Assembly: GCA_050262635.1 (NCBI GenBank)
Contig: JBLNEK010000005.1
Coordinates: 35,135 to 67,134, forward strand
Length of the DNA stretch: 32,000 bases
Direction of reading: 5' to 3'
DNA from: Candidatus Sericytochromatia bacterium
GTDB taxonomy: Bacteria > Actinomycetota > Actinomycetes > Mycobacteriales > Mycobacteriaceae
Positions 7,345 through 25,781 of this stretch are shown in pieces. A program made the translations under genes and the position numbers. A model generated the notes under the pieces. The model saw only the letters and a list, made by a program, of their open reading frames with translations. It made no database searches and was not told the DNA's origin. The stretch's first letter is position 1, and the number at the start of each line of letters is the position of its first letter.

Positions 7345-7362
7345 GGGCCACAGCCTAACCAG

Positions 7363-8589: not shown

Positions 8590-9449
8590 CGGGTGGTCCG
8601 CCGCGGCAGGTGGCGTCGACGCGGCCACACCCCCGACCGTAGGAACAGCCGCCGGGGTGCCTGCGCGAGGCGGCTCCGCCAATGGCTGGCGTGCTCCGCG
8701 GGCATCGCGCTGACGATCCGTTTCGCGTGAGTGCCGGGCACAGCGCGCAGCACGCGCTCGACGACGACAGGATGCGCGATGCGGACGACTTCGGCGGCGA
8801 CGTTGGGTTCTCTGGTGGTCAGCACCTCCGCGGCTGATTCGGTGTCGAGCCGGCTCACCAGCGCGGCGAGCCCGCGCGCGTCGAGATAGTGGACGGCCGA
8901 CCGCGGGGTCGCCAGCTGAACGGCGTGGCCGCGCTCGGACGTCAGGTGCAGGTCGTTCCATGAGACAGCGTCTTTGGGGGCGCGCGCAGCCACCCGCTGC
9001 AGACCGAGGCGCCGCAGCACTCCGGCAAAGCCGACCTCGACGCCGACGAGTTCGAGCCGGTTGTCGGCGCTGCGGGCCAGCACCACGTCAGCGACCCGCG
9101 CGAGCCGGTGACCGACGACGTCAATGATCTGGGTGTCCAGCACGTCGCGCACGAGAAAGATCTCATCGTCGTCCAAAGCCGTTGATCTGAATCGGCTCAG
9201 CTCGCCGGGGGCCAGCGCGATGTCGGTGTGCCGGAACTTCTCGACCGCAGTCCACGGGATCAGGAGCTCAAGAGCGCCGTCGCGCACCAGGATTCGCTGA
9301 ACCAGATGCGGACCCGCCGGAGTGCCGAGCCGCGCGGTGAGGTCGCGCAGGGTTCCGACGACCTCGCCGTCGGACGCACGCACGTCACGACCGATCAGCC
9401 GGCTCAGGAACAGCACATCAGGAGCATGCCGGGTCGGCGCGCGGCGCAT
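8586..9449 (-). CDS. Cytoplasmic PRC-barrel x2 / MgtE N-terminal-domain-like protein
   Basis: Two PRC-barrel-like segments (LIGRDVRASDGEVVGTLRDL...LLIPWTAV and VRDVLDTQIIDVVGHRLARVADVVL) are followed by helical repeats resembling the MgtE_N domain (AALVSRLDTESAAEVLTTREPNVAAEVVRIAHPVVVERVLRAVP). No TM segment. Domain calls are by eye. Confidence 0.7.
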   Translation of the reverse strand: MRRAPTRHAPDVLFLSRLIGRDVRASDGEVVGTLRDLTARLGTPAGPHLVQRILVRDGALELLIPWTAVEKFRHTDIALAPGELSRFRSTALDDDEIFLVRDVLDTQIIDVVGHRLARVADVVLARSADNRLELVGVEVGFAGVLRRLGLQRVAARAPKDAVSWNDLHLTSERGHAVQLATPRSAVHYLDARGLAALVSRLDTESAAEVLTTREPNVAAEVVRIAHPVVVERVLRAVPGTHAKRIVSAMPAEHASHWRSRLAQAPRRLFLRSGVWPRRRHLPRRTTR

Positions 9450-9485
9450 CGCCGAAACCGCGTTCAGGAGTTCCTGTGTCGGCTC

Positions 9486-11282: not shown

Positions 11283-11451
11283 CAAGTTTGGTGGTGCGCG
11301 CGCCCCCCGGCGCCCCCCGGTCGCGCGCAACCCTCTAGCATCATGCACCGCGGTGGCAACCCTTATCAGCAAAATCGAATGTCCAACTCAGCAAACTATG
11401 CCGGTCACCTTCAGGCTCATTGGCGCACTGGCTCGTAATCCGCCACGGCAA

Positions 11452-12311
11452 TCAAGCAATGTTATGGGAAGCGTCTTCAGTTTCGTAGTCGAGTTCGAGG
11501 CGTTGTTCGGGCCGCTGCGCTTCAGCGGCCAGCGCCAGGCTGTAGTAGGACTTGTCCGCCCGGGTGAGCGGCGGTTGCGCGATGCTTCTGGGCCAGAGCC
11601 GTCGCACGCGAACGACACGCGAACGACGTCCGCCTGGATCGCGTAGACGATGACCGTTGCCTGCAGCGCCAACCAGGCGAGCAGTCCAAGGACGACACCG
11701 AACAATCCGGCGACCGCCTGAGCATGTCGCAGCTGGTGCGAGACAACGATTCCGGCGATGGTCAGCAAGATCTGCCAGCCGAGTGCGCTGATGGCCGCGC
11801 CGACCCACATGTCGCGGGTGGACACCTCGCCGGCCACGGCCACCCGGAACAGGATCAGAAAGAACGCGAACCCCAGAGCCGTTCCGACCGCCAGGCTCGC
11901 GAAGCGCGCGCCGAGCCCGCCGAGACCCAGCGATGCCGCGGTTCCGGCGGCGGTACTGGCGGCGCCTGTGACCACCACGATCAGGCTGAGAAGCAGGAGC
12001 AGCGAGATTGTGCGCAGGTAGCGCGGGAAAAAGCCGGGCCGGGCGACTTTGGGCACCGCCCACACCTTGTTCATCGTGTTCTGCATGGCATGGGCGAACC
12101 CGCGCCCTCCGATCAGCGCCCCGGCCACGCCGATGATCAACGATGGAAGCGTTCCACTGAATGATTCGACGCCGAGCTGATCGTGAATCTGGCCGCCGAC
12201 GATCGGAAATTCTGCAAAGGCCTGTGCGTGACCGTCATCTTGCTTCCGCTCGGTATCCCCGTCACCAAGCTCGGCGGCCGCCTCTTCACCCTTGCCGGCG
12301 ACCTGATGCAT
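11452..12311 (-). pseudogene. YihY/BrkB-family membrane protein, 5'-truncated and frameshifted
   Basis: Frame A (12311 to ~11616) carries the YihY core (MQNTMNKVWAVPKVARPGFFPRYLRT, multiple TMs). The conserved C-terminus VVRVRRLWPRSIAQPPLTRADKSYY... is in a different frame (ORF ending at 11452). The two frames are joined by an 11-bp tandem duplication. The first ~2 TM helices of the family are absent. Confidence 0.75.
11605..11626. repeat. Perfect 11-bp tandem duplication (cacgcgaacga x2) causing the yihY frameshift
   Basis: Plus strand 11605-11615 equals 11616-11626. Removing one copy gives the continuous reading ...YAIQADVVRVRRLWPRSIAQPPLT.... Confidence 0.9.
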
Positions 12312-12342
12312 ATCCCCTAAGGGGGCACCATGCGACTAATAC

Positions 12343-12645
12343 GTGGATTGCTGGGGCGTTCTGTTATGGATCGTTGCGGCGCTGCTCGGGCTCGTCGGGC
12401 TGGTGTTATGCGTGACGGTCATCCTGCTGCCGGTGGGGATTCCGATCGTGAAGATGGCTGGACGGTTCTTCACCAGCTCGGTGCAATTGATGCTTCCGCG
12501 GGCAGTGGCCCACTCGGTCGACGAGCTGACGAAGACGGCTCACAAGAAAGGGCGGAAAGTCGGGTCAGCCGCTTCGGGCACCGCCAGTTCGACCGCGAAG
12601 AAAGCCCGTAAGGCTGTTCGCAATCAGCGAAAGCTCCTGGCGTAG
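12343..12645 (+). CDS. Small hypothetical membrane protein with Lys/Arg-rich tail
   Basis: GTG start. High third-position GC in this frame only. Hydrophobic hairpin VLLWIVAALLGLVGLVLCVTVILLPVGIPIV followed by a basic tail KKGRKVGS...AKKARKAVRNQRK. No family recognised. Confidence 0.5.
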   Translation: MDCWGVLLWIVAALLGLVGLVLCVTVILLPVGIPIVKMAGRFFTSSVQLMLPRAVAHSVDELTKTAHKKGRKVGSAASGTASSTAKKARKAVRNQRKLLA

Positions 12646-12657
12646 AGAAACTTCCGG

Positions 12658-13940
12658 TCAAGCTCCGACGCGATCGGTCGCCCGATGGCTTCGTGCGTAC
12701 ACCTCGGCGAGGAATTGCTCGACGGCCACCGCCGCATGCGCCGCCCGCACCGAGCCGAGGATGTCGAAAGCGTGCTGAGTGAACGGAAGCTCCGCGTACA
12801 CCACTGGCTGCGTGCTGGCAGCACGTAACCGGGCGACGAACGCGCGGGCCTGCTCGACGGGTACCAACGAGTCATTGCGGCCGTGCAGCACGAAAAACGG
12901 TGGGGCGTCGGCGTTAACGTGGTGGACGGGTGACGCATCGACGTACGTCTGCAGGTCGGTCGAGTGAGGTCGTTTGACGACCCACCGTTCCAGAAGGTCG
13001 GGCATCGACGGGTGCATTGCATCCTCGACCCGGGTGAAGTCGTAGACGCCGTAGAAGGGGACAGCGGCCTGCACGGCGGTGTCGGCATCTTCGAAGCCCG
13101 GCTGGAACCGAGGGTCGTTGGGCGTCAGGGCCGCCAGCGACGACAGGTGCCCACCGGCCGACCCACCTTGATGGCAATAAAATTGGGGTCGCCGCCGTAT
13201 TCGACTATGTGTGTTTTGGCCCAGGTGAGCGCCCGCTTGATGTCGATGATGTGGTCGGGCCAGGTGTTGCGTGGGCTGTGCCGGTAGTTGATGGCGACGC
13301 AGATCCAGCCGAGCTCTGCGAGGTGGCTCATCAGCGGATGTGCTTGGCCGCGTTTGTTTCCCGTCGTCCATGCACCGCCGGGAATCTGGAAAAGCACGGG
13401 CGCCTTACCGTTTGGGTCGAAGTCCGGGCGTCGCCAGATGTCGAGATGGTTGGCCCGGCCGTAGTCGCCGTAGCTGATGTCGGCGCCATGGGCGTAGTCG
13501 CGGTAGATGCGCAGCATCCGCAGTGGGCCCGGCGTCTTCGCCAGGCCGCCGCCGGCCGGCTTGCGCCACAGGCCTGTCGAGTCTGCGCGACGACCGTTGC
13601 CGAGGCCGTCGTCCAGCGCCGCGGTCAGCGTGGCCTTCGACTGGTGGCCCGCGCGACTGAAGTTCAGCAACCCCACCGCCGACACGGCGGCCACGATCCA
13701 CGAGATGGCCCGCACGGGCCGGGTCAATCGCCGTGCGGTTAGTGCGAGCCCGCCGATCTGGCTCGCCAGCGTCTGCAACGGCAACTCGCTCACTACCAGC
13801 CCGAACACCCACGAGTAGACCGACGGGTATCCGTAGCGCGCCAAGGGCCGGTACCCGTTGAGTGTGGACGTGGCGGTCACAGCGGCGACGACCAGCGCCC
13901 CGACCTGTCGAAGGACGACGAGAGGTGAGGCGTTCCGCAC
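12658..13940 (-). pseudogene. Alpha/beta-hydrolase carboxylesterase (LipQ-like), interrupted by a 1-nt frameshift
   Basis: The upstream frame (13940-13169) has N-terminal TM helices, the oxyanion motif FQIPGGAWTTG and ...EYGGDPNFIAI. The downstream frame (13168-12658) starts at GGSAGGHLSSLAAL (GxSxG nucleophile) and contains the ...LHGRNDSLVP... and ...FTQHAFD... catalytic regions. The junction atc-aa-ggt-ggg-tcg lacks one base. Confidence 0.8.
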
Positions 13941-14410
13941 TCGCCCAGCCTACGAGGAATCATGCAGAAAATTGCACCGAGTGATTAGGGATGCCGGGCC
14001 AACATTTTTCGGCCGCCGCCGAACTCACCCGGTACCACGCCAGCGAACTCGATTGGATGACGGCCGGTGCGCTTTATGCCGGTGGATAGTATGCGCCGGG
14101 CGATCAATACGATGGGCGGGAGACTTTGCTGCGATAAAGCCGATAATGATCCTCGTCATTCGATTGACGGCCTTCTAGGGCTATGCCGTCGAGCATCACC
14201 GGCTACGTCGTCTGGTGCAAAACGCGGTGATCAGTCGTTCTACTGCCCTTGCGAGAACAAGTAGCTGCTAGTTGTGCGAGCTTTGCTGGACTTTGCCGTC
14301 GCCACGGTACTCGTGGGCTGGGTCACGGCCGGTATCGTTTGTGATCTAGCAAATATTGACATACGCTACCGCAGGGGACGGTAGCAAATTCTTTCGAGGG
14401 GACCGGGGCA

Positions 14411-16204
14411 GTGGGAAAGCATGCGTCGAAAAACCTGGCGAACGATTCAGGAAGCCGCCGGTTTCGGTCACCCGACGGGCCCTCGTGTGCGACGCGACCA
14501 GTGGTGCCGCCTCGAGTTCGAGACCGCCGGTGGCGCCGGGGCGTCCACTTGAGGGTTGCCGCGTCGGTAGCCGTGGTTGCTGCTGCTTTTCTGACTTTCG
14601 GCGCAACGTTGACTTCGGCAGTCGCCTCGGCGGCCACGTGTGCTGACGCGGATTGCGTTTACATCATGAAGGGAACCAACAGCGCCTTCAATCAGATTCC
14701 GGACTCCGCCTATCCACAATTCGCCCACGACTACTACAACGCGGTGAACCCTCCAGCGCCGATACCAGTCAGTGCGCCATACCCCTATTACGTCGTTCCC
14801 TATCCGGCAACGTTCCGCCCGTTTACTCCGCCGGGCTACATTTTCTCGCCGACATTCGACCAGTCGGTAGCAACCGGCGTGTCAAATCTGGAGAATGCAC
14901 GCCCCCTGGACTCCCCGCGATCTGGGGATGTCATTTGGGGTTACTCCCAAGGTGCGACGGTGGTTACGCAATACAAGCGCGACTTCAATTCGTCTGATCC
15001 CAGTGTCAACGCGCCGACCTTCGTCCTAGTCGCGAACCCGAACCGGCCGAACGGCGGAATCCTCGAGCGGGGTGTGGCGTTGGGTACCATCCCCATCCTG
15101 GGCCTGACGTTCAGCGGTGCCACCCCGACAACCACGAGCGGCCCGTCGGCCGGCTCGCTGACCACGTATGACATTGCCCGGCAATACGACGGCATCGCCG
15201 ACGCCCCCGAGAATCCACTCAACCCGGTCGCCGATCTCAACGCGATGATGGGGTTCTACTACCTGCACGGCCAGTACCCCAACGCCGACCTGACAACTGC
15301 AATCGATCAGGGTCGGTACGGCGACACCGAGTACTTCCTCATTCCGACTTACCCGCTGCCATTGCTGATGCCGCTGGACTCCATACCGGTCATCGGATTT
15401 CCGCTCGCCGACACGTTGGATCCGCCGCTGCGGGTCATCGTCGAATCTGCGTATGACCGCAGCACGTCCCCTGGTGAACCGACTCCGTTCAACCCCCTGT
15501 ATTTCCCGAACCCGGCGACATTCGGCACCAACCTCCTCGTTGCGATTCCGACCGGACTCGACAACGGAATCAGCGACTTCACAGGAACGCGCCCGTTCGG
15601 AACCATTCGGCCGGGGCCGTATGGCGTCGGCGGGCCGCCGACCCCCCAGCTGAGCACGCCGACGCAAGGCACTAGCCCTACCATTCCGGTGCTGTTCGGC
15701 TCCCCGAGCGGCGGTATGTTCGCGCTCCTGAATCCCGCAAACCTCTCACAAAGCCTCACGCCACCCGACGGTAGCCAGCCGAGCATCTCGTCCTTCTCGA
15801 ACACCACCAATGAACTCACCAACCTGGGACCGGACGGTCAGAACCCACCGGCAGGAAGTCAGCTCCAGGCCAATTCACCAAACGGCACTGTTTTTGGTCA
15901 GCGGCTGGCACCCGTAGCACCCCCGAATGAATCGCGCGAGCCAGAAGTCGCAGACACTGCCGGGCAGTCGAACGACGATCAGTCTGCGGCAACCAAGCCA
16001 CGACCGAGGCTCAACGTGCTGCGCTCCTCGCCGGGCGCGCCCGTCCCGCAGCCGGGAACAAGCTCGCCGAATGGCTCGCGATCCGCCAACAATCCGATTG
16101 GATCCGTCACCACGGGCATATCGAATTCCCTTGCGGGTGCCGCGGATTCCATCAGGTCGGCGCTTGGAGGTACGTCGAAGAACCCCAAAGGCGGTGCGAA
16201 CTAG
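14411..16204 (+). CDS. Membrane-anchored/secreted PE-PPE-domain serine hydrolase (Chp-like), with Ser/Pro/Asn/Gln-rich tail
   Basis: GTG start after GAGGGG. Hydrophobic N-region VAASVAVVAAAFLTFGATLTSAVASAA, nucleophile motif IWGYSQGA, and ANPNRPNGGILERG, ARQYDGIADAP, YYLHGQY. Clearly paralogous to 9486-11282. The ~190-aa C-terminal region is low-complexity. Confidence 0.85.
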   Translation: MGKHASKNLANDSGSRRFRSPDGPSCATRPVVPPRVRDRRWRRGVHLRVAASVAVVAAAFLTFGATLTSAVASAATCADADCVYIMKGTNSAFNQIPDSAYPQFAHDYYNAVNPPAPIPVSAPYPYYVVPYPATFRPFTPPGYIFSPTFDQSVATGVSNLENARPLDSPRSGDVIWGYSQGATVVTQYKRDFNSSDPSVNAPTFVLVANPNRPNGGILERGVALGTIPILGLTFSGATPTTTSGPSAGSLTTYDIARQYDGIADAPENPLNPVADLNAMMGFYYLHGQYPNADLTTAIDQGRYGDTEYFLIPTYPLPLLMPLDSIPVIGFPLADTLDPPLRVIVESAYDRSTSPGEPTPFNPLYFPNPATFGTNLLVAIPTGLDNGISDFTGTRPFGTIRPGPYGVGGPPTPQLSTPTQGTSPTIPVLFGSPSGGMFALLNPANLSQSLTPPDGSQPSISSFSNTTNELTNLGPDGQNPPAGSQLQANSPNGTVFGQRLAPVAPPNESREPEVADTAGQSNDDQSAATKPRPRLNVLRSSPGAPVPQPGTSSPNGSRSANNPIGSVTTGISNSLAGAADSIRSALGGTSKNPKGGAN

Positions 16205-16385
16205 GCTCACTGCCGCGGTGTAGTCGACGTCCGGGAGTAAATGATCACCGCCGCACACGCGATGACGGAGCTGAACGGCCCTCTGAAACGGATCCGCGTT
16301 CCCTGGGCCACACTGGCCATCAACACTTCCCCTATGTCCTGTTTGTTGGCGCAGGCCGCGCCCGGCGGATAGTTGAGACCGGAGG

Positions 16386-17093
16386 ATGGCTGTATTGCGC
16401 TGGACCTCGATCGCAAGAACGCTGGCTTTGGTGTTGTGCTCCGCCGCTCTTGTCGCGCCGACCGCATGCTCAGCCTCCTCCATGCGGAATCGGCACATCG
16501 ACATCAGCAAGATCTTTCTGGTCAAGTCCACATTCGGGCCCGACTACAAGGTTGCCACCACCGGTCCAACAGCCATCGATCCGCGATTGCTCATTCCCCC
16601 GACGCTCTCCTCCGATATGACGTTCGAGCCCGCGGATTGTGCGAAGTATGCCTCGGGTCAGACGTTGCCGAGGGACTTGACCGGCACGATGGCCACCGTG
16701 TCCGCCGAGGGGGACAGGAACCGCTTCGTTGCTGCCGCGCTGCAGACGTCACAGCAGGTTCCATACGAGCCGATCAGCGAAAATTGCAGGCATATCGCTT
16801 TCACCGGTCGAAGCGTAAAGGGCGTCATCGACCTCGTTGACGCGCCGCGCATTGACGACGCAGAAACTCTGGCTACCCACAGGGTGCTTCAGGCCACCCT
16901 CGGTGGCCAAGACCGCTCAAGCGATCTGTACAACTACACCGCATATCTCGGGAACTGCGTCGTACTGGTCGCCGCGACGTCGGTGGCGGCACCAGACCAG
17001 CCGCCCGCTGCCGTGGACGTCGAAATGGCGCGCCGGCTCCTGACTGACTCGGTGGCCTCCGTCCGTGGCGCGAAGATACGGGCGACCGGCTGA
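16386..17093 (+). CDS. Putative lipoprotein
   Basis: Signal peptide with a lipobox-like LVAPTAC (Cys28). The mature part has paired Cys (EPADCAKY, SENCRH, LGNCVV). The start could instead be TTG three codons downstream, which has better SD spacing. The family could not be pinned down by eye. Confidence 0.7.
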   Translation: MAVLRWTSIARTLALVLCSAALVAPTACSASSMRNRHIDISKIFLVKSTFGPDYKVATTGPTAIDPRLLIPPTLSSDMTFEPADCAKYASGQTLPRDLTGTMATVSAEGDRNRFVAAALQTSQQVPYEPISENCRHIAFTGRSVKGVIDLVDAPRIDDAETLATHRVLQATLGGQDRSSDLYNYTAYLGNCVVLVAATSVAAPDQPPAAVDVEMARRLLTDSVASVRGAKIRATG

Positions 17094-17185
17094 CTGCCTT
17101 ATCGAACTGCCATCGCACACATCGGGCGTGGTCAATCGCAGCAGCGCGGTGCACGCGTGGCGTGCGAGACAGATTGCGATACCAG

Positions 17186-17725
17186 TTACTTGGCGACCAT
17201 GCGCCAAGGCTGGCATCCGTGCGTGGCGAAGGCGGCATCCGTTGGCAGTATTCGCACCTGCGTCGGTCCAGCATCCGAGCCGCCGGCTTCGATCGTCGTC
17301 TCGGGTGTCTCCTGGGGCGCCGACAATCTCGCCCACGCGCAATGCGTCAACCCTGGCGCCGGGCCGTCCGACTCCCACACACCCGGATCGACCTGATCGC
17401 CGCCCACCCGATACATCCCGTCGGCCGGCATCATCTTTTCCGACACGTACCGGCTCGTCGTGGTCGTCGGCGCGGGCTGGGTCGGTGAGGGCGAGGACGG
17501 CGGCGTCGCCCCGGGGTTTCCACGAGTTCCCTGGAACACCAGCGCGCCCACGGCCAACAGCGCCGTGAGGCCCAGGCTTGCACCGGTGAGGATCTTGAAC
17601 AGTTTCGTGCTGCCGTGCTTGTGCGAGGCAGGGATAGCGGTATACCACTCCGAGCCGTCCCAGTACAGCTTCCTGGGTTTACCCTCCGGGTCGGGGTACC
17701 AGCCAGGCGGCAGCTGTGTGGGCAT
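17186..17725 (-). CDS. DUF2510-domain membrane protein
   Basis: N-terminal PPGWYPDPEGKPRKLYWDGSEWYT (DUF2510 signature), a single TM LGLTALLAVGALVF, a Pro/Thr-rich linker, and a C-terminal extracytoplasmic domain. Confidence 0.8.
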   Translation of the reverse strand: MPTQLPPGWYPDPEGKPRKLYWDGSEWYTAIPASHKHGSTKLFKILTGASLGLTALLAVGALVFQGTRGNPGATPPSSPSPTQPAPTTTTSRYVSEKMMPADGMYRVGGDQVDPGVWESDGPAPGLTHCAWARLSAPQETPETTIEAGGSDAGPTQVRILPTDAAFATHGCQPWRMVAK

Positions 17726-17895
17726 GTCAGCTCATTGTTTACCAGCAGACCCGGTTGCCAGTCACCCGCCGAGAGGTCCTCGACTTGTACAGCGCGCGCT
17801 CTGCGAGTGGGTACGGAATAAGCGCTCCAATGCCGCCGGTTTCCGCTTTGCGACTTTGCTAGGTTACGGAGAAAGCGATCGAGAGGGATACCGTT

Positions 17896-20526
17896 GTGCT
17901 CTCGAAGCTGCTGCGCCTTGGCGAGGGTCGTTTGGTCAAGCGGCTCAAGGCGGTGGCGAACAGTGTCAGCAGTCTGGCCGAGGACGTCGCACAACTGACC
18001 GACGCAGAATTGCGTGCGAAGACCGACGAGTTTCGCATGCGTCTTCTTGCCGGCAGGTCGCTCGACGACCTCGTGCCGGAGGCGTTCGCGGTGGCCCGAG
18101 AGGCGGCGTGGCGGGTGCTGGACCAGCGGCCGTACGACGTGCAGGTGATGGGCGGCGCGGCTCTGCATTTCGGCAACATCGCCGAGATGGGCACCGGCGA
18201 GGGCAAGACGTTGGCCTGCGTGCTGCCGGCGTATCTGAACGCGTTGAGCGGCAAAGGAGTTCACATCGTCACCGTCAACGACTATCTGGCCAGGCGCGAC
18301 GCGGAGTGGATGGGTCGCGTGCATCGCTTCCTTGGTCTGAGCGTCGGGGTGATCCTTGCGGAGATGAAACCCGACGAGCGACGGGTGGCCTACAACGCAG
18401 ACATCACCTACGGAACGAACACCGAACTGGGTTTCGACTATTTGCGCGACAACATGGCCCACCGGCTCGAGGACTTGGTGCAGCGGGGGCACCACTTCGC
18501 GATCGTCGACGAGGTGGACTCGATTCTGATCGACGAGGCGCGCACGCCGTTGATCATCTCCGGGCAGGCCGAGGAGGCCTCCGACTGGTATGTCGAGTTC
18601 GCTCGGCTGGCCGAAATGCTGGAGAACGACGTGCATTACGAGGTCGACATCCGCAAGCGCACGGTCGGGGTGGACGAAGCCGGGGTGGAACTCGTCGAGG
18701 ACCAGTTGGGCATCGACAGCCTCTATGAGGTGTCGAACTCGCCGCTGGTGAGTTTTCTCAACAACGCAGTCAAGGCCAAGGAGTTGTTCGACTGCGACAA
18801 GGACTACATCGTGCGCGACGGTGAGGTCCTCATCGTCGACGAGTACACCGGCCGGGTTCTGGTGGGGCGGCGCTACAACGAGGGGCTGCATCAGGCGATC
18901 GAGGCCAAGGAGGGCGTGGAGGTCAAGCCGGAGAACCAGACGCTGGCGACGATCACGCTGCAGAACTATTTCCGGCTCTACGACAAGCTCGCCGGGATGA
19001 CGGGCACCGCGCAGACCGAGGCCGCGGAGTTCCGGGACATCTACCGCTTGGGCGTGGTGGCGATCCCGCCGAACAAGCCGACGATCCGCAATGACGAGCC
19101 CGACATCGTCTACAAGACAGAGAAGGCCAAGTTCGACGCGGTGGTCGAGGAGGTGGCCAACCGTTATGCGACGGCCCAGCCAGTGCTGATCGGGACCACC
19201 AGCGTGGGCAAGTCGGAGTACCTTTCGGGTGAGTTCGTCAAGCGCGACATTCCGCATTCGGTCTTGAATGCCAAGCACCTGGAGGCGGAGGCGGCGATCG
19301 TTGCCGAGGCGGGTCGGCGAGGCGCAGTCACGGTGGCCACCGACATGGCCGGCAGGGGAACTGACATTGTGCTGGGCGGCAACATCGACTTCTTGACCGA
19401 CAAGCATTTGCGGACAAGGGGTTTGGACCCGATGCAGACCCCCGACGAGTATGAGGCAGCGTGGCGTGACGAGCGCTCTGCGGTAAAGGACGAGGCTGGC
19501 GTGGAGGCCAAAGCGGTTGTGGCGCTGGGCGGTCTGTACGTGCTGAGTACCGAGCGGCACGAGTCGCGGCGTATCGACAACCAGTTAAGGGGCCGGTCGG
19601 GGCGGCAGGGAGATCCGGGGGAGACGCGGTTCTATCTGTCGCTTGGGGATGAGCTGATGCGCCGCTACAACGGCGAGGCGGTGCAGAAGATCCTGACGAA
19701 GCTGAAGGTACCCGATGATCTGCCGATCGAGTCGAAGATCGTCAGCCGCGAAATCGCCACGGCGCAAACGCAAGTTGAGCAGGTCAACTTCGAGGTGCGC
19801 AAACATGTGCTCAAGTATGACGAGGTGATGAACCAACAGCGCAAGGTGATCTATGCGGCGCGCCAGCGGATTCTGCGGGGCGACGATCTCGGCAAGCAGG
19901 TGCACACGATGCTCGTCGACGTGATTACCGGCTACGTCGATGCAGCTACTGCATCGCCCGATGTGACGGAATGGGACGTCGACTCTTTGTGGACGGCGTT
20001 GAATGCGCTATATCCGGTTGGGGTGAAAGATCATCGGTGGAAGCGGCGACGAGCGAGGACGGCTGCGGTGATGCGCAAGGTGTTGACGCACGCCTTGATC
20101 AAGGATGCCGAGCGGGCATTCGCTAGGCGGGAGAAGGAGTTCGAGCAGCTGGCCGGCGCGGGGGCGATGCGGCAGCTGGAACGCGAGGTGCTGCTGGATG
20201 TGATCGACCGCAAGTGGCGTGAGCATTTGTATGCGATGGACTACCTGAAGGAAGGCATTGGGCTACGCGCGTTGGCGCAGCGCGACCCATTGGTCGAATT
20301 CCAGCGTGAGGGCTACGACATGTATGTCGCCATGATCGAGGCCATCAAGGAGGAGAGTCTTGTCGCGCTGTTCCAGGCCGCTCTGAAGAAAGACCCCGCA
20401 CCCGAGCCGGTTGGTGTGGTGGCGCCGCTGCGGCTGGCTGAATTCACTAGGGGCGCAACACAAGACGCGGACCCTTCGGCGCTCGGCGGCGAGGGAGAAG
20501 GACGGCATGCAGCAAGCCGTGGATGA
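17896..20526 (+). CDS. secA: SecA preprotein translocase ATPase, SecA1-type architecture, divergent
   Basis: GTG start 7 nt after [25 protein letters not shown]..., Walker [68 protein letters not shown], and [23 protein letters not shown]. 876 aa. Confidence 0.95.
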
Positions 20527-20527
20527 A
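20441..20527 (+). repeat. Copy 1 of a diverged direct repeat (secA 3' end including its stop codon)
   Basis: aattcactaggggcgcaacacaagacgcggacccttcggcgctcggcggcgagggagaaggacggcatgcagcaagccgtggatgaa. Roughly four-fifths identical by eye to 21298-21382. Confidence 0.75.
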
Positions 20528-20536
20528 CTTCTAGGG

Positions 20537-20950
20537 TCAGACGCCAACGACGGTCAGAAGATGTTCGATGCCTCGGAAGTCGTCGATGTTGCGGGTGTAG
20601 AGGGGCAGGTTTTTGGCTAGGGCGGTGGAGGCGATCAGCAGATCGACCGCCCGGGGGCCGCGCGCCTTGCGTCCTGTTGCGACGATTGCCGCATACATGC
20701 GTCCGTAGGCTCGGGCAGAGTCACCATCGAAGGGCAAGGGGTCGAAGGTGGCCTCGGCGCGCTGCAGCCTATCTTGGCGCCGCGCTCGCTCGGCGGTGTC
20801 GCGCGTGGCGTGAGGGCCCGCTGCGAGTTCGGCCATGGTGAGGGCGCTGATCGCCAGTTCGCCCGGGAGCTGCCCCATGTCAATGTGGTCCAGGTCGATC
20901 AGGACCGAGGTGTCGATGAGTCCTTGCGACCGACTCGGAACATCAGCCAT
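20537..20950 (-). CDS. vapC: PIN-domain ribonuclease toxin VapC
   Basis: MADVPSRSQGLIDTSVLIDL... (PIN N-terminal acidic motif), ...DLLIASTALAKNLPLYTRNIDDF. The ATG at 20950 overlaps the antitoxin stop (ATGGCTGA). Confidence 0.85.
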   Translation of the reverse strand: MADVPSRSQGLIDTSVLIDLDHIDMGQLPGELAISALTMAELAAGPHATRDTAERARRQDRLQRAEATFDPLPFDGDSARAYGRMYAAIVATGRKARGPRAVDLLIASTALAKNLPLYTRNIDDFRGIEHLLTVVGV

Positions 20951-21197
20951 GAGGCGTGATGCCTTGGCTCGCAACCCGATCGAGGTCAGCTCGCAGCCGG
21001 TCGAAATCTATGCGGGGAGCTCCTTTGAACGCCGCTTGCACGGCCTTGGCATTGACGAACCGCTGCCGACGCAGTGGCGAAAGCTCGCCGACAGGAACAC
21101 CATTCCTGGTCACAACAAAGGATTCACCCTGGTCGAGCTGGCGCATGATTTCGCCGCTGTTATTGCGTAGCTCACGTTGGGTGATCTCTCTGGTCAC
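20943..21197 (-). CDS. vapB: Phd/YefM-type antitoxin partnered with VapC
   Basis: MTREITQRELRNNSGEIMRQLDQGESFVVTRNGVPVGEL is the typical Phd/YefM N-terminal fold sequence. GTG start at 21197. Directly upstream of the PIN gene and overlapping it. Confidence 0.85.
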   Translation of the reverse strand: MTREITQRELRNNSGEIMRQLDQGESFVVTRNGVPVGELSPLRRQRFVNAKAVQAAFKGAPRIDFDRLRADLDRVASQGITPHG

Positions 21198-21222
21198 ATG
21201 GTGATTGTAGCACGCGTGCTAC
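21198..21222 (-). promoter_or_regulatory. Putative leaderless promoter (-10 TACAAT) overlapped by a perfect 16-bp palindrome operator
   Basis: Minus strand: GTAGCACGCGTGCTACAATcaccatGTG. The palindrome GTAGCACG/CGTGCTAC is at 21207-21222, TACAAT at 21204-21209, and 6 nt separate the -10 from the GTG start codon. Confidence 0.55.
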
Positions 21223-21297
21223 GGCGGTGGGACTTGGCATGCGGGCCGCAGCCGGTCGGCGCTCCCGACTGGCATGCGATCGAAGCGGGGAGGTGTG

Positions 21298-21382
21298 AAG
21301 TTCACAGTGGCGCGGCGCAAGACGCGGACCTTTCGGCGGTCGGCGGTGGGGGGACGGACGGCATATGGCGAGCCCTGATGAA
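21298..21382 (+). repeat. Copy 2 of the diverged secA 3'-end repeat
   Basis: aagttcacagtggcgcggcgcaagacgcggacctttcggcggtcggcggtggggggacggacggcatatggcgagccctgatgaa. In the matching frame it reads ...EVHSGAAQDADLSAVGGGGTDG..., against the SecA tail ...[22 protein letters not shown].... Confidence 0.75.
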
Positions 21383-21418
21383 ATCGATACAGCGCCGCCG
21401 GCTCGATGCCTGACGTCG

Positions 21419-21805
21419 CTACGCGGGCATTGAGAACGGTGGTTGCAGATCTTCGAACATCGGGAAGTGGCGGACGTTGAGAGTCGCCAAGTGAAGTCCT
21501 TTGACATCTGCGGTAGCTGCGACGAGATAGTCACCCAGTCCGATCCCGGAATGGATTTGCCGATATTGCCGCATCAGCTCGCCGGCCCGTCGAGCGATGA
21601 TCTCGGTAGCGGGTTCCACGCGAAACGATCCCAGCAACCCCCACACCTCGCGGCGCTCGGCTGATCGCATCCCGCCGACGAGCTCGGCGATCGAGACCAC
21701 GCTGATCGCCAGGGGCACCTGCTTCCGGGTGCTGAGAAGCCAGTCGCGGGCTGCGCCGATACCGCGCAGATGAGCGATCAGCACATCCGAATCGACAAGG
21801 ATCAC
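21419..21805 (-). CDS. vapC: PIN-domain ribonuclease toxin VapC (second module)
   Basis: VILVDSDVLIAHLRG... and ...DYLVAATADVKGLHLATLNVRHFPMF. I prefer GTG 21805, which overlaps the antitoxin stop (GTGA). GTG 21814 (ORF track) is the alternative. Confidence 0.85.
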   Translation of the reverse strand: MILVDSDVLIAHLRGIGAARDWLLSTRKQVPLAISVVSIAELVGGMRSAERREVWGLLGSFRVEPATEIIARRAGELMRQYRQIHSGIGLGDYLVAATADVKGLHLATLNVRHFPMFEDLQPPFSMPA

Positions 21806-22053
21806 GAGCGCCACATTCGGCCCAGGTGCTCCTCACGGGCACCCTCTCCGCGCACCGGAACATCGATGTCGTGCATCGCACCGAACGATTCGTCGATCGC
21901 CCGCAGGTCGGAAACGAGGCTGGCGTCCGCATCGGTCAGCACACGGTCCAACAGCTGGCGGATCAGCTCAGCACGGGAGACGCCCTGTTGTGCAGCCAGG
22001 CGGTCGAGGGCCGCTGTCTGTTCCTCGTCGAGGTAGATGTTGGTGCGGCGCAT
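21802..22053 (-). CDS. vapB: Ribbon-helix-helix (CopG-like) antitoxin VapB
   Basis: MRRTNIYLDEEQTAALDRLAAQQGVSRAELIRQLLDRVL is the classic RHH pattern. I prefer ATG 22053 over 22065 because of the -10 spacing. Confidence 0.8.
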   Translation of the reverse strand: MRRTNIYLDEEQTAALDRLAAQQGVSRAELIRQLLDRVLTDADASLVSDLRAIDESFGAMHDIDVPVRGEGAREEHLGRMWRS

Positions 22054-22071
22054 ACACCACATCATACACCA
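22051..22071 (-). promoter_or_regulatory. Putative leaderless promoter (-10 TATGAT) within a 9-bp direct repeat pair (candidate RHH operator)
   Basis: Plus-strand CATACACCA occurs at 22051-22059 and 22063-22071 (12-bp period). Minus strand reads TGGTGTATGATGTGGTGTATGcgc. TATGAT (22061-22066) lies 7 nt from the ATG at 22053. Confidence 0.5.
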
Positions 22072-22197
22072 GCTGGTGGCCCAGAAAGGGACCTTGCGCT
22101 ACGCCAGCGAACGCAGAGTCGCGCGTAACCATTTGCTCACGCCATCGGGGGCTATTCCTTAGTCATCGATGTTTGCTGGATGAGTACAGCAACCTAC

Positions 22198-23271
22198 TCA
22201 CGCCGTCGGCCGCCAGAAACCCTGAAAACCCTGGTTCAAGTTCGTCGTCCGGATCGGCGACAACTGCACAGGATCGCCGGCCTCGATCATCAGCCCGTTG
22301 CCGACGACCATCGCGACGTGACCGTCCCACACCGCAAGATCCCCCGGCAGCAGCGCGTTCGGCGACACCGCCACACCGACGTCTTGTTCTTGGGCCAGCC
22401 GCGGAAGGTCAAGTCCCGCTTCGTGATACGCCCACTGCGTCAGTCCGCTGCAGTCCAAGCCCACACCGGGTGTAGTGCCGCCCCAGTCGTAGGGCACGCC
22501 GAGCTGTGTCAGCGCGCGGCGCACCGCGTCGGCGGCCACCTTGTTGGGAGCGTTCACTGTGGTGCCGTCGGGCAGACGGACCGTGACCCCGCCACCGAGC
22601 GCGTCGGAGTCCAGCATCGGCGCCTCAGCGAGATCTCCCAGGCTCGCCGGCACCGCCGATGTCAGACCTGACATCAGCGCGGCAGGCGTCGCCGCAACAC
22701 TGCCTGCGCCCGGCAGCATCGACGACGACATCCCCGCCGGTGAGGTGACCGGTGGTTGCATGGCGGGCGTTGCGGCAGCGCCGGACTCCGCGACCGCCGC
22801 CGCGTGCCCGTCGAGTTCGGCTTCCAACTCTGCGACCACGCCCGCCGCGTCGGCCAGTGCCCGCCGCGTCGCCTCGGCCAATGCCGGGGCGCTTCTGGGC
22901 AGATCCTCTTCGAGCGTCTGGGCGGTGGCTTCGAAGTCGTCGACGATGCGCTGCAGCTGGGCCTTCGTGCGCGCGACTGCATCGGATGCGGCGTCGACAC
23001 GGCTCGCCATCCCCGACGCATGCGTGGCCAAGTCGGCCGCGCCGGTGAGCGCTGCCGAGATCGTGCGTCCCGCAGCGTTTGCCGCCATCCCCGACCACTG
23101 CGCACCGATTTGTCCGAGTCCGGCGGTGCCGTCGGCCGTCAACTCGGCGACGGCTTGGCTCGCGGCGCGCAGCACCTGGGCGGGGTCGTCATCCGTGAAG
23201 ACACCGTCGCCCACAGCCGCTTGCAACTCGTGCAGCGGCGCGGCGAGCGCGGTTACCAGGGCGCTGGCCAA
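22198..23271 (-). CDS. NlpC/P60 (C40) peptidoglycan peptidase with long N-terminal helical, WXG-like domain and no signal peptide
   Basis: C-terminal C40 domain: ALTQLGVPYDWGGTTPGVGLDCSGLTQWAYHEAG (catalytic Cys) and LAVWDGHVAMVVG (His). The N-terminal ~160 aa are Ala-rich helical with W59-S-G61 (IGAQWSGMAANAA). An Ala/Pro/Ser linker follows. TTG start 3 nt after the upstream stop. Confidence 0.85.
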   Translation of the reverse strand: MASALVTALAAPLHELQAAVGDGVFTDDDPAQVLRAASQAVAELTADGTAGLGQIGAQWSGMAANAAGRTISAALTGAADLATHASGMASRVDAASDAVARTKAQLQRIVDDFEATAQTLEEDLPRSAPALAEATRRALADAAGVVAELEAELDGHAAAVAESGAAATPAMQPPVTSPAGMSSSMLPGAGSVAATPAALMSGLTSAVPASLGDLAEAPMLDSDALGGGVTVRLPDGTTVNAPNKVAADAVRRALTQLGVPYDWGGTTPGVGLDCSGLTQWAYHEAGLDLPRLAQEQDVGVAVSPNALLPGDLAVWDGHVAMVVGNGLMIEAGDPVQLSPIRTTNLNQGFQGFWRPTA

Positions 23272-23274
23272 TGA

Positions 23275-23577
23275 CTAGGCCCCGACGTGCGCGATGTGCG
23301 TCTGAGAGCACCGTTCCGTGTCGTCGAAGTCGGCGGCCGCCGCCGTGGTCGCGCTGCCGGCGGCCATGACGTCGTCGCCAATCTGGTTAAGCCTCTTCGA
23401 CAGCGCATCGGCTGCGTAGGCGACTGTCTGGGCGAACCGGGAACCGATGGGTCCGAACGCGGCGGTGACGGTCGCGGCGGCCACCGAGCGCAACGGTGCG
23501 ACAGCTGCGTGGAGGTCGGCGCCGAGATCGGAGGTGGCGGTGCCGTAGTCGCGGATCGCGTCGGTGTCAGCGTGCAT
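23275..23577 (-). CDS. Small helical protein, EspC-like / type VII secretion target family-like
   Basis: 100 aa: MHADTDAIRDYGTATSDLGADLHAAVAPL...FGPIGSRFAQTVAYAADALSKRLNQIGDDVMAAGSATTAAAADFDDTE. The length and the pattern of conserved Ala, Gly and acidic residues resemble the ESX secretion-associated EspC family (by eye). Confidence 0.6.
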   Translation of the reverse strand: MHADTDAIRDYGTATSDLGADLHAAVAPLRSVAAATVTAAFGPIGSRFAQTVAYAADALSKRLNQIGDDVMAAGSATTAAAADFDDTERCSQTHIAHVGA

Positions 23578-23616
23578 GACACGTTAGACCGGCGGCGCCG
23601 GCTGGCGGTTCCGTCG

Positions 23617-24264
23617 TCAATCCAGAAGGGAGCCGACGCCCTCGGCGACCAGCAAGACCCCGAGCAGGCCGAGAACGGCGGTCATGACGGTCCGGTAGTG
23701 GTCGAGAAGCCACTGCTTGATGCGATCGAGTGTCGCGGTCGCGTGCTGGCCGCCTGACATTAGGAACGCCACCACCGCGATGAACGGCGCTGTGGCGAGC
23801 ACCGTGAACACCGCCAAGGTTGCCAGCAGAGCGGGCGCCGACACGTGAATTGACGCGGCTTGCGAACCCACCGACAGCAGCACCACCGCGTTGATCGGGT
23901 TCAACCACACGACCGTCAAGGACAGCGCGAACACCGCGCCCGCCCCCATGCCGGCGATCTTGTCCAACACCGCCGGCGGGGTCTCCAGGTTCCTGTTGAC
24001 CGAGCTTCCAATGGCCAAGGCGCCCAGCAGGACTCCGAGGGCGATGAGCAACCATCCGGTGACTGCACTGGGACTTGTGGCGTGTGTGTTATCGGCCCAG
24101 GATCGCAGCATCGTGGCGCCCAGGAGCGGCAGCGCGAACACCGACACGGTGACCGAACCGAGGAACACGAGCGCGTTGACCCGGGCGCGTGCGGACAGCA
24201 GGACCAGGATCATCTCGATCAGGCCTGTGGGGCTAAGGGCGATCGCGATCGCGGCCGGCAACAT
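23617..24264 (-). CDS. GAP-family (Sap-like, PF11139-type) polytopic membrane protein
   Basis: 215 aa with ~6 TM segments. The N-terminal AIAIALSPTGLIEMILVLLSARARVNALVFLGS matches the characteristic ALSPxxIIxxILxLxxxRxxxN start of this family as I recall it. Confidence 0.6.
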   Translation of the reverse strand: MLPAAIAIALSPTGLIEMILVLLSARARVNALVFLGSVTVSVFALPLLGATMLRSWADNTHATSPSAVTGWLLIALGVLLGALAIGSSVNRNLETPPAVLDKIAGMGAGAVFALSLTVVWLNPINAVVLLSVGSQAASIHVSAPALLATLAVFTVLATAPFIAVVAFLMSGGQHATATLDRIKQWLLDHYRTVMTAVLGLLGVLLVAEGVGSLLD

Positions 24265-24289
24265 CGTCGCCCACAGCTGGGCGGCAGAG

Positions 24290-25108
24290 TCACCGATGGG
24301 TGTCAGTCCTTGAAAGTCGTTGCCGGCGAATCACTATCGCGGCGACGGCTGCCACGTAGATCACCATGCAAGCGATCACGGTCGCGATCACTTGGGGATA
24401 CTTGCTGTCCCAGCCGCCGGCCGACGTGTGCTTGATGAGGATGCCCGTATAGGCCCACAGCAGCACGAGGCCGTAGGCGATGTCGCGGTTGCGCAGAACC
24501 GTAGCGGTTCCAATGGCCGCCGCGACGAGCACCATGATGACCGCCCAGGCCGAGTCGGCCAGGCCGAAGCCGTCCCAGTTGACGCTGACCAGAAACACCG
24601 TGACGTTCGCGACCGTCGCCACGGTGGTCCAGCCGAAATAGACGCTGAACGGCACCCCGATGAACAGTTTCTCCCGCGGAGTCAGCTCGGCAGCCGCCAG
24701 CGTCATCGCGATGACGGCCAGGCACGCCAGAATCACGATGATCAGCACCACCGAAAGAGCGATCACGTCGTAGTGCCAGGCGAACACCCAGGCCGTGTTC
24801 GCCAGTGACGAGATCGAGAAGTACAGGCCGACCTTGTTCAGCAGACCCGACCGATCGCCGGAGGCTTGGCGGGCCCGGAACAGCCCCAGCTGATACAGCA
24901 CGTGCAGGCCGAGCAGCAGGTAGATGAGGCTCCAGATGGAGAAGGTGATCCCGGCCGGCGCGAACAGGTTCGGATAGGCGTTCGACACGTCACCGGTGCG
25001 TCTTCCGTTGATAGGCAGCGTGTTCGCCAGGGCATTGACCGTCACCATCAACAGGTACGTGACTGCGGCCAATGCGGCGATAAGGCGCCTCGCCGTCGTC
25101 GCTTCCAT
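24290..25108 (-). CDS. TspO/MBR-related tryptophan-rich membrane protein (long form)
   Basis: 272 aa, multi-TM. NTLPINGRRTGDVSNAYPNLFAPAGITFSIWSLIYLLLG and the Trp-rich segments (NTAWVFAWHYD, YFGWTTVATVAN) resemble the TspO-like family. Assignment by eye. Confidence 0.5.
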   Translation of the reverse strand: MEATTARRLIAALAAVTYLLMVTVNALANTLPINGRRTGDVSNAYPNLFAPAGITFSIWSLIYLLLGLHVLYQLGLFRARQASGDRSGLLNKVGLYFSISSLANTAWVFAWHYDVIALSVVLIIVILACLAVIAMTLAAAELTPREKLFIGVPFSVYFGWTTVATVANVTVFLVSVNWDGFGLADSAWAVIMVLVAAAIGTATVLRNRDIAYGLVLLWAYTGILIKHTSAGGWDSKYPQVIATVIACMVIYVAAVAAIVIRRQRLSRTDTHR

Positions 25109-25181: not shown

Positions 25182-25781
25182 ATGAACATGAAGATAGCGG
25201 CCGCTGCTGCGGCGCTGCTGCTATGCACGTTGACAGCGTGCGGCAGTGCCGACAAGAGCGCGAACAGCACACCGGGTTCCACGACAGATGCCACGACGGC
25301 AACCACGACGACCTCGCCGCCACCGGCCCCGGCGCCGTTCGCGTTGAGCAGTCCCGCCTTCGCCGACAACACACCGATTCCGGCCGAATTCTCCTGCAAC
25401 GGCCGCAACGTCCCTCCGCCGCTGCGTTGGGAGAATGTGCCGGCGGGCGCGGAGTCGCTGGCGCTGGTTCTCGATGACCCCGACGCGGTGGGTGGCCTCT
25501 ACATTCACTGGGTCGTGACCGGGATCCCGCGCGACGTTGCCGAGATCGTGGACGGTGCACTGCCTCCGGGCGCTCGGGTCGGGCTCAATTCGGGTGGCAA
25601 GGCGGCATACCTGGGTCCATGCCCGCCGACTGGCACGGGTGTGCATCACTACCGATTCCAGCTGTACGCGATCGGTAAGCCGTTGACGGTGACGGACACC
25701 ATGGCGGCCGCCGAGGCGACCCGCGCCATCGCTGACGCGGCCATCGCCGACGTCCGCGTCGTCGGGTTGTTCAGCGGCTGA
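25182..25781 (+). CDS. YbhB/YbcL-family PEBP (Raf-kinase-inhibitor-like) lipoprotein
   Basis: ATG 25182 lies 10 nt after GAGGAG. Signal peptide plus lipobox [13 protein letters not shown] core LVLDDPDA...[10 protein letters not shown]...[19 protein letters not shown]. Confidence 0.85.

Follow-up and report, generated by a model that had tools for sequence, protein, structure and literature searches.

A conserved two-gene unit of the Mycobacteriales pairs an EspC-like small protein with a signal-less NlpC/P60 peptidase and resembles a SigM-driven type VII substrate pair

In a 32,000-nucleotide stretch of mycobacterial DNA (contig JBLNEK010000005.1 of assembly GCA_050262635.1, positions 35,135 to 67,134; hereafter the window), four open reading frames (ORFs) lie end to end on the minus strand and encode two polytopic membrane proteins, a small helical protein and a peptidase of the NlpC/P60 (C40) family. 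A preliminary description of this locus, made from the sequence alone, took the row for a tight four-gene operon and a candidate uncharacterised system. Here we present a comparative analysis in which the conserved entity is the pair formed by the last two genes, which carries a promoter-like element of its own and has the appearance of a substrate pair for type VII (ESX) secretion. The features of the locus, in window coordinates, are these:

24290-25108, minus strand: 'TspO-like' Trp-rich polytopic membrane protein, 272 residues
23617-24264, minus strand: Sap/SfLAP (GAP-family) polytopic membrane protein, 215 residues, PF11139
23584-23612, minus strand: predicted SigM-type extracytoplasmic function (ECF) promoter, wholly within the 39-nucleotide gap 3' of the stop codon of the Sap-like gene
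23275-23577, minus strand: small partner protein, EspC/EsxB-like helical hairpin, 100 residues
23314-23328, minus strand: F84-D-D-T-E88 of the small protein, a variant of the YxxxD/E half-signal
22198-23271, minus strand: C40 peptidase gene with a TTG start, 357 residues
22771-23271, minus strand: putative helical carrier domain at the N-terminus of the C40 protein, residues 1-167, WXG100-, PPE- and EspA-like
23089-23097, minus strand: W59-S-G61 of the C40 protein, a WxG turn between helices 2 and 3
22588-22770, minus strand: predicted disordered Ala/Pro/Ser/Gly/Met-rich linker, residues 168-228, placed by model confidence and family variability
22198-22587, minus strand: NlpC/P60 (C40) catalytic domain, residues 229-357 and the stop codon, PF00877
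22450-22452, minus strand: codon of the catalytic C274, of the triad C274, H318 and E330

The ORF coordinates bear out the intergenic gaps of 25, 39 and 3 nucleotides (nt) that the preliminary description had given. Since third-position GC, taken from the codon composition of the window, is 0.81-0.86 in every one of them, the four ORFs can be regarded as genuine genes of a high-GC genome, and sequence searches found homologues for all four products. The stop codon of the small gene and the start codon of the C40 gene stand in one reading frame (TAG TCA TTG, window 23271-23277). A split or read-through fusion of the two genes can be set aside, as they share a frame in about 11 of 75 related loci and are fused in none; because that fraction falls below the one third expected by chance and there are no fusions at all, the shared frame in the window looks coincidental.

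Relatives of the C40 protein were collected in a one-genome-per-species scan that returned 576, and the locus counts that follow come from the best 80 loci, sampled from Mycobacterium, Mycolicibacterium, a Mycobacteroides-like isolate, Rhodococcus, Nocardia, Gordonia and Williamsia. Neighbouring genes were scored by tblastn of all window proteins against these 80 loci, while homologues of the small protein were sought with an iterated hidden Markov model (HMM) built from it. A homologue of the small protein was found encoded directly 5' of the C40 gene in 78 of the 80 loci, and the other two loci are cut by contig ends. Both upp and pmmB lie beside the C40 gene in nearly all of them, and in at least 75 the pair is single-copy at a fixed, upp-adjacent chromosomal position. 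By the same tblastn comparison, no copy of the TspO-like gene, the Sap-like gene or the PEBP-family gene that lies beyond them was present in any of the 80 loci. The PEBP/TspO-like/SfLAP insertion does occur in the nearest relative of the window (locus L081, whose C40 protein is 87% identical), and its genes are absent from the next relative examined (C40 identity of about 70-72%), where upp directly adjoins the small gene. Because the membrane genes are missing both from the 80 loci and from this last relative, the four-gene row is a recent juxtaposition: what is conserved is the two-gene pair, upstream of whose promoter the TspO-like, Sap-like and PEBP genes were inserted in one lineage only. 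The survey of gene order thus lends no support to the tight four-gene operon of the preliminary description.

The genes found 3' of the pair in relatives are YbaB-like, Rv3311-like or a transposase gene, and no conserved secreted, lipoprotein or transmembrane candidate for an immunity protein was seen 3' of the pair in the window or in the relatives examined. The C40 gene has one or two genes of the YbaB/EbfC family on its 3' side in Nocardia, Rhodococcus, Mycobacteroides-like and some Mycobacterium loci (L045 7119-7893; L030 7122-7481; L023 7983-8294; L054 4175-4516), with PF02575 matches that reach E 1.8e-10, one of two such genes matching only weakly. The Mycobacteroides-like locus L054 has the order pmm - upp - small gene - C40 gene - YbaB - Rv3311-like - add. 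These YbaB/EbfC genes are positionally equivalent to Mab_3665/3666 of M. abscessus (see below) and are absent from the window. A plasmid or mobile origin of the pair was considered and rejected: a distant DNA search of PLSDB gave one unrelated match, to the TspO-like gene, and the pair is chromosomal and syntenic.

The pair is also set apart by a conserved element that resembles an ECF promoter. Of 76 related loci, 74 have the motif GGAACC-N16/17-CGTC[C/G/A][A/T]A no more than 150 nt 5' of the small gene, and both strands of the 1.95 Mb that make up all the loci yield only 126 matches in total. In the window this element reads GGAACCG-N15-GGTCTAA-cgtgtc-ATG (23612-23575), with the -10 element ending 6 nt before the ATG. 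Its -35 element is identical to the GGAACCG published for the SigM binding site of M. abscessus and M. smegmatis (PMC13491425), and the -10 element was compared with the family consensus of this analysis. In most Mycobacterium loci the start codon falls some 5-7 nt after the -10 element, which implies leaderless transcripts, and the transcript of the small gene in the window is probably leaderless as well. Given that the promoter lies wholly within the gap that follows the Sap-like stop codon, the three inserted genes have left the pair's own promoter intact. One further loose match (GGAAC-N-GTC) at window position 10276 on the plus strand, inside the region of a PE-PPE-domain ORF, was judged to be due to chance.

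The C40 protein belongs to a large family of full-length relatives of about 340-450 residues. PF00877 (NlpC/P60) matches its residues 258-351 with E 2e-18 (66.7 bits against a cut-off of 23), and the DCSG cysteine (C274) and GHVAM histidine (H318) on which the preliminary description had based its identification are invariant, together with E330, in a 74-sequence alignment, which leaves the Cys-His-Glu triad intact. The spacing of 12 from histidine to glutamate (H318-E330) is that of RipA. The catalytic domain finds 8er5 in Foldseek (E 1e-8), and its nearest solved relatives are clostridial NlpC/P60 enzymes, M. tuberculosis RipC (5e-16), RipD, RipA and RipB, and Tn916-type wall hydrolases; between genera the domain is 62-84% identical. 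A hydropathy heuristic detected no transmembrane-like or signal-like segment in the protein, and the first eight residues are free of Lys and Arg in 73 of 74 family members. The TTG start is backed by a family-wide conserved N-terminus, M-P/A-S-A-L-V, and the earlier claim that the protein has neither a signal peptide nor a transmembrane segment is upheld to that extent.

An AlphaFold 2 model of the C40 protein, built with 74 sequences (mean predicted local distance difference test, pLDDT, of 78.7), has N-domain helices at residues 4-20, 30-56, 62-121 and 128-167, with W59xG61 in the loop at 57-61, then a linker with pLDDT below 50 at residues 179-226 and a confidently modelled NlpC/P60 domain. 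The linker varies in both length and sequence across the family. The W59-S-G61 turn to which the preliminary description drew attention is near-invariant: both W and G are invariant in the 74-sequence alignment, and across Mycobacterium, Rhodococcus, Nocardia, Gordonia and Williamsia the tryptophan is kept in 58 of 61 sequences and the glycine in 59 of 61. When 19 diverse N-domains of the family were compared with Pfam, 15 matched PF06013 (WXG100) at E<=1 (best E 2.3e-9), with further matches to WXG100_2 (7), PF18879 (EspA_EspE; 6) and DUF4226 (6). The best PDB match of the N-domain family profile is ESAT-6 (E 0.0011), in an alignment that superposes the WxG, and Foldseek pairs the modelled N-domain with PPE41 (target-normalised template modelling, TM, score 0.60) and PPE4, over a range of 0.55-0.60.

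The small protein is modelled by AlphaFold 2 as a helical hairpin (helices 3-41 and 43-99; mean pLDDT 87) that turns at an invariant G42-P43, and its best Foldseek neighbours are EsxA, PE25 and CFP-10, with TM scores of 0.7-0.83. At the level of the family, PF10824 (T7SS_ESX_EspC) is matched by 28 of 29 members at E<=0.1 (best E 1.2e-9), and the alignment of the family profile with CFP-10/EsxB (E 0.024) runs the whole length and lays the family motif on the YSRAD of CFP-10. The features conserved across genera are an N-terminal aDT..i.a.g, a central fGPiGa.F turn and a C-terminal A..Y...D. At the first position of this last motif tyrosine is found in 65 of 76 copies, leucine in 9 (a Nocardia subset) and phenylalanine in 2, with D or E at +4 in 63 of the 76. 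By these sequence comparisons the small family is assigned to EspC, with the window copy as a divergent member. The preliminary description had the protein ending in ...AAADFDDTE, with an FxxxE: the motif is there, as F84xxxE88, but it is not the C-terminal end, since 12 residues follow it.

The small family and the C40 N-domain thus find their likenesses among the partners of known ESX heterodimers, namely EspA/EspC and EspE/EspF (ESX-1), EsxA/EsxB and PE/PPE. As in those systems, a partner of about 100 residues and EspC/EsxB type is joined with a larger WxG helical protein, and a bipartite WxG plus YxxxD/E signal, with FxxxE in the window copy, would be displayed on a four-helix bundle. YbaB-like (EspL-like) genes near the pair, in several of the genera that carry it, are a further resemblance to the Esp systems. 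In contrast to all of these, the larger partner in the window ends in a hydrolase, its genes lie away from an esx locus and run in the order small then large, and the SigM-type promoter points to ESX-4 rather than to ESX-1.

Several observations count against so direct a comparison. Taken by themselves, the window copies fall below the thresholds of the family models: the N-domain scores 16.3 bits (E 0.012) with WXG100, for which the threshold is 27.3 bits, and the small protein 15.3 bits (E 0.029) with PF10824, for which the gathering threshold is 23.5 bits, so that the EspC-like character claimed earlier for the small protein holds at the family level and not for this copy alone. In Foldseek the helical domains reach only weak E-values (0.08-1), and BAR-type long-helix folds score alike. 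The replacement of Y by F in the window motif is restricted to the window's subclade, within which E88 is invariant, and the window -10 element differs at one base from the CGTC core, a variant that it has in common with its closest relative, L081. In the Mycobacteroides orthologues (P0210, which is Mab_3664, and L054 2498-3847) the W of the WxG turn is replaced by F; these proteins, of about 450 residues, also carry a much longer, Gln/Gly/Met-rich linker. Between them, the L of the Nocardia subset, the F of the window motif and the F for W in Mycobacteroides mean either that the canonical residues are not strictly required or that the signal is degenerate. On the same side of the balance, the self-directed remodelling role proposed below is purely one that we infer.

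The pair has a counterpart in recent work on M. abscessus. Canestrari et al. (2026; PMC13491425) report 15 direct SigM target operons in that species, in a regulon focused on ESX-4; operon 12, a direct SigM target, consists of Mab_3663-3666. Its products are an ESX/PE-like protein with YxxxD/E (Mab_3663), an NlpC/P60 protein (Mab_3664, UniProt B1MFZ3), an Rv3716c-like protein (Mab_3665) and a YbaB/EspL-like protein (Mab_3666). Mab_3663 and Mab_3664 were modelled with AlphaFold 3 as a PE/PPE-like heterodimer (Fig. 3M of PMC13491425), and these two proteins of operon 12 were proposed in 2026 as ESX-4 substrates (PMC13491425). B1MFZ3 was recovered among our C40 homologues as P0210, and Mab_3664 aligns collinearly with the window protein, with 62% identity over the C-domain (E 1e-69) and 28% over the N-domain (E 4e-10). 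On the strength of this collinear similarity and of the synteny of the Mycobacteroides locus L054, rather than of a phylogeny, the window pair appears to be orthologous to Mab_3663/Mab_3664.

The two loci agree in having a small YxxxD/E-type gene followed by a C40 gene with a helical N-domain, in the -35 GGAACCG promoter and in adjacency to upp, which is seen in the syntenic Mycobacteroides locus. They differ in several respects. Operon 12 has two YbaB-like genes on its 3' side whereas the window has none; Mab_3664 is 450 residues long with F in the WxG turn, whereas the window protein has W, 357 residues and a much shorter linker; YxxxD/E in the small protein is FxxxE in the window; and the window alone has three unrelated genes inserted just 5' of the promoter.

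The reading that we favour, with a probability of about 0.6, is that the small gene and the C40 gene are a SigM-driven two-gene unit encoding a type VII substrate pair, that the C40 protein cuts the producer's own peptidoglycan, and that the membrane genes are uninvolved. The case for an ESX-type pair is built on the family HMM matches, the conserved motifs, the predicted structures, the SigM-type promoter and the apparent orthology with M. abscessus; the heterodimer, the dependence on ESX, the muralytic activity and the self-directed role are what we infer from these. The ESX-type interpretation of the preliminary description accordingly survives for the last two genes, and finds no support for the membrane proteins, which it had suggested might be export, insertion or immunity components.

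Under this favoured reading the two genes would be transcribed as an autonomous unit from the SigM-type ECF promoter in the 39-nt gap. The C40 gene would probably be translationally coupled to the small gene, as its TTG lies 3 nt past the stop codon of the latter. The products would make up an ESX substrate pair, most likely of ESX-4. Of the two halves of the secretion signal, (Y/F)xxxD/E would come from the hairpin and WxG from the C40 N-domain, and the pair would form a four-helix bundle that an ESX ATPase could recognise. Export by ESX would offer a peptidoglycan peptidase that has no Sec or Tat signal a route to the wall. On the far side of the membrane, the C40 domain, held on a 60-residue disordered linker, may cut the stem peptides of peptidoglycan, and by homology to RipA/B/C the bond cleaved would be gamma-D-Glu-mDAP (D-glutamate to meso-diaminopimelate). 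The most likely target would be the producer's own sacculus, remodelled locally during contact-induced processes that depend on SigM and ESX-4.

There is some precedent for an enzyme of this kind in the service of secretion. EssH, a CHAP-domain protein that leaves the cell by the Sec route, helps the type VII machine without being one of its substrates. It sets a precedent for a self-directed role that enables secretion, being the dedicated wall hydrolase, functionally tied to secretion, of the type VIIb system of S. aureus (PMC13059805). At second hand it is reported that an NlpC/P60 protein of the SigM regulon, which may or may not be orthologous to the window protein, is required for conjugation (PMC13491425). 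A wider proposal would make the pair an ancestral, order-wide SigM/ESX-4 cargo, a type VII-exported autolysin and not a toxin, conserved at upp from Nocardia to Mycobacterium. As an endopeptidase it would breach the cell's own wall at a local site and so serve ESX-4 functions triggered by contact, for instance conjugal uptake of DNA or the transit of further substrates; this we put forward tentatively, as a possibility that has the odds against it.

Among the alternatives, the one that fares best, improbable as we judge it, is that the pair is a toxin locus of the Eat/Tap type directed at other bacteria, in which an ESX-4-delivered C40 enzyme would kill or weaken neighbouring mycobacteria while an immunity protein protects the producer. 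The toxicity of EatA depends on ESX-4, and EatA-TapA1-TapA2-EatI is the locus of this ESX-4-secreted arabinanase toxin (Benedict et al. 2026; PMC13444075). The layout is comparable, with one or more small helical partner genes 5' of a gene for a protein that joins a helical N-domain to an envelope-degrading enzyme and lacks a Sec signal. NlpC/P60 domains are among the commonest payloads of Eat-type loci in M. abscessus (PMC13444075), and a second, accessory NlpC/P60 protein of the SigM regulon, Mab_1832, is present in 39 of 96 isolates of that species (PMC13491425). The differences are nonetheless considerable. The EatA locus has two partners, a GH183 payload and, downstream, the immunity lipoprotein EatI; the window pair has one partner and a C40 domain, and neither the window nor the relatives have a conserved lipoprotein or transmembrane immunity candidate on the 3' side. 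The N-domain of EatA is reported to cluster with the LXG type of T7SSb (PMC13444075), while that of the window matches WXG100, EspA and PPE profiles. The EatA locus is patchily distributed, over about 60 species, whereas the window pair is core and syntenic across the order, single-copy at its upp-adjacent site in at least 75 of 80 loci, with a catalytic domain that is highly conserved between genera (62-84%) rather than polymorphic. Operon 12, too, seems to belong to the core genome of M. abscessus: the operons named as being of low prevalence are 8 and 11 alone (PMC13491425). Taken together, the single copy, the synteny with upp, the strong conservation and the want of a conserved immunity gene favour the cell's own sacculus, rather than a rival cell, as the target.

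We regard it as unlikely, and somewhat more so than a toxin, that the C40 protein is a cytoplasmic or otherwise non-ESX peptidase, for example a muropeptide-recycling enzyme or a gamma-glutamyl amidase, whose N-terminal helices are merely a coiled-coil domain for regulation or oligomerisation. Such an enzyme would fit the lack of a signal peptide by the hydropathy heuristic, the lack of any esx gene within the 32 kb of the window, the weak matches of the helical domains of this copy and the replacement of the canonical W or Y in some lineages. It would not account for an EspC-family partner co-conserved in 78 of 80 loci, for family matches to WXG100 and EspC of about 1e-9, for WxG and YxxxD/E motifs conserved at the structurally expected places or for the conserved SigM-type promoter, and the nearest catalytic relatives are extracytoplasmic wall hydrolases.

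A third possibility is that the protein is a divisome hydrolase of the RipC/CwlO/PcsB type, which would dock through a coiled coil on FtsX or on a SteAB-like regulator and serve cell separation. Many of the homologues carry the name 'CwlO' in Joint Genome Institute (JGI) annotations, the NCBIfam equivalog model for RipC (NF038345) aligns with residues 104-343, and full-length Foldseek searches match 8idc_E (M. tuberculosis FtsEX/RipC) and 8aud (C. glutamicum Cg1735). The five NlpC/P60 proteins of M. tuberculosis, RipA-E, do share the catalytic fold and the DCSG/His/Glu triad with the window protein, RipC being its closest solved mycobacterial relative (E 5e-16), and RipA and RipC likewise join a helical N-domain to a C40 domain. 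We nevertheless think a divisome enzyme very unlikely here. With the RipC model the protein reaches 68 bits, far short of the cut-off of 425, and the root-mean-square deviation of 26-28 A in both full-length matches means that the likeness to RipC and Cg1735 reflects the shared catalytic domain only, which is all that superposes. The N-domain matches WXG100 and PPE rather than the RipC coiled coil. RipA, RipB, RipC and CwlO have signal peptides (PMC12067865), and extracytoplasmic partners control RipA and RipC; the window family differs from RipA-E in being signal-less by the heuristic, in its WXG100-type N-domain and in its obligatory EspC-like partner, and a divisome role would leave both that partner and the SigM promoter unexplained.

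Weakest of all, and scarcely credible to us, is a single four-gene system in which the TspO-like and Sap-like proteins would export, insert or neutralise the C40 protein: the genes are co-oriented with short gaps, the arrangement is kept in L081 and read-through transcription is conceivable, but the membrane genes are missing from the 80 related loci and from the relative at about 70-72% identity, the pair's conserved promoter stands between them and the small gene, and every other genus examined has the pair without them.

The inserted genes are of some interest in their own right. The Sap-like product, which has several hydrophobic segments, matches PF11139 (SfLAP) over residues 2-210 with E 1e-20 (74.3 bits against a cut-off of 35), as the earlier assignment to the GAP/Sap family had supposed. 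SfLAP/GAP proteins are known for glycolipid export, not for protein export. The assignment of the first gene to TspO, by contrast with that of the second, finds essentially no backing: sequence and profile searches gave no Pfam, NCBIfam or PDB match for its product and no match to PF03073 at E<=1, and in a family-wide Pfam scan PF03073 matched one of 32 members (E 1e-4). A Peptoclostridium homologue is annotated as 'tryptophan-rich sensory protein'. The family as a whole consists of Trp-rich membrane proteins of about 265 residues, with 4078 representatives at E<=0.001 and almost no Pfam coverage, and could be one that has yet to be described. For the PEBP-family ORF (25182-25781, plus strand) the probable start is [20 protein letters not shown], which gives the product a lipobox-bearing lipoprotein signal and leaves a divergent intergenic region of about 73 nt between it and the TspO-like gene.

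On the other side of the pair, the gene that follows the C40 gene, at a distance of 132 nt, encodes a VapB-like antitoxin. The wider synteny of the window is that of the Rv3305c-Rv3313c region of M. tuberculosis (M20 peptidases, deoD, pmmB, upp, an Rv3311-like gene and add), relative to which extra genes have been inserted on both sides of the pair. Some 15 kb (7345-22197) separate the C40 gene from the Rv3311-like gene (6082-7344), as compared with about 1 kb or less in most relatives, and this interval holds genes for an Nramp protein, two PE-PPE-domain proteins, BrkB, an esterase, a DUF5642 protein, an 876-residue SecA and two VapBC modules. In the lineage of the window, insertions have a hot spot in the upp-add interval. 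The esterase (BD-FAE/alpha-beta-hydrolase; 12661-13517, minus strand) is broken across two reading frames: residues 1-116 of its intact 286-residue orthologue in L081 correspond to 13517-13170 and residues 132-286 to 13125-12661. The split is a frameshift, reflecting either a pseudogene or an assembly error. The SecA is full-length (17896-20526, plus strand), and its counterpart in L081 is called only as a 177-residue SecA_SW fragment. The source contig is labelled 'Candidatus Sericytochromatia bacterium' by NCBI; given its mycobacterial gene content and synteny and the fact that all close homologues are mycobacterial as well, the contig was probably mis-binned in its metagenome-assembled genome.

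The preliminary description had thought the system uncharacterised, but both the class and the M. abscessus pair were described in 2026 (PMC13444075, PMC13491425). The concept of a type VII substrate pair of this kind is therefore published, and the window contributes a divergent member that adds breadth and not a new principle. What is added here is the order-wide conservation of the pair, of its motifs and of its promoter next to upp, the finding that its upstream neighbours do not belong with it, and a case for seeing in the pair a housekeeping ESX cargo rather than a polymorphic toxin. For annotation, we suggest that the pair be read as a SigM/ESX-linked unit from which the upstream membrane genes are kept out, and that those signal-less proteins of the Mycobacteriales now called 'C40 family peptidase' or 'CwlO' that have this N-domain are misnamed. 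A 2025 review of the NlpC/P60 proteins of mycobacteria is confined to RipA-E and makes no mention of ESX or SigM (PMC12067865). If our reading is true, the family would constitute a sixth class of these enzymes beyond RipA-E, one that reaches the wall by type VII secretion and not by Sec, and the pair, being order-wide, would provide a handle on the ancestral purpose of ESX-4 and on how type VII processes cross the peptidoglycan.

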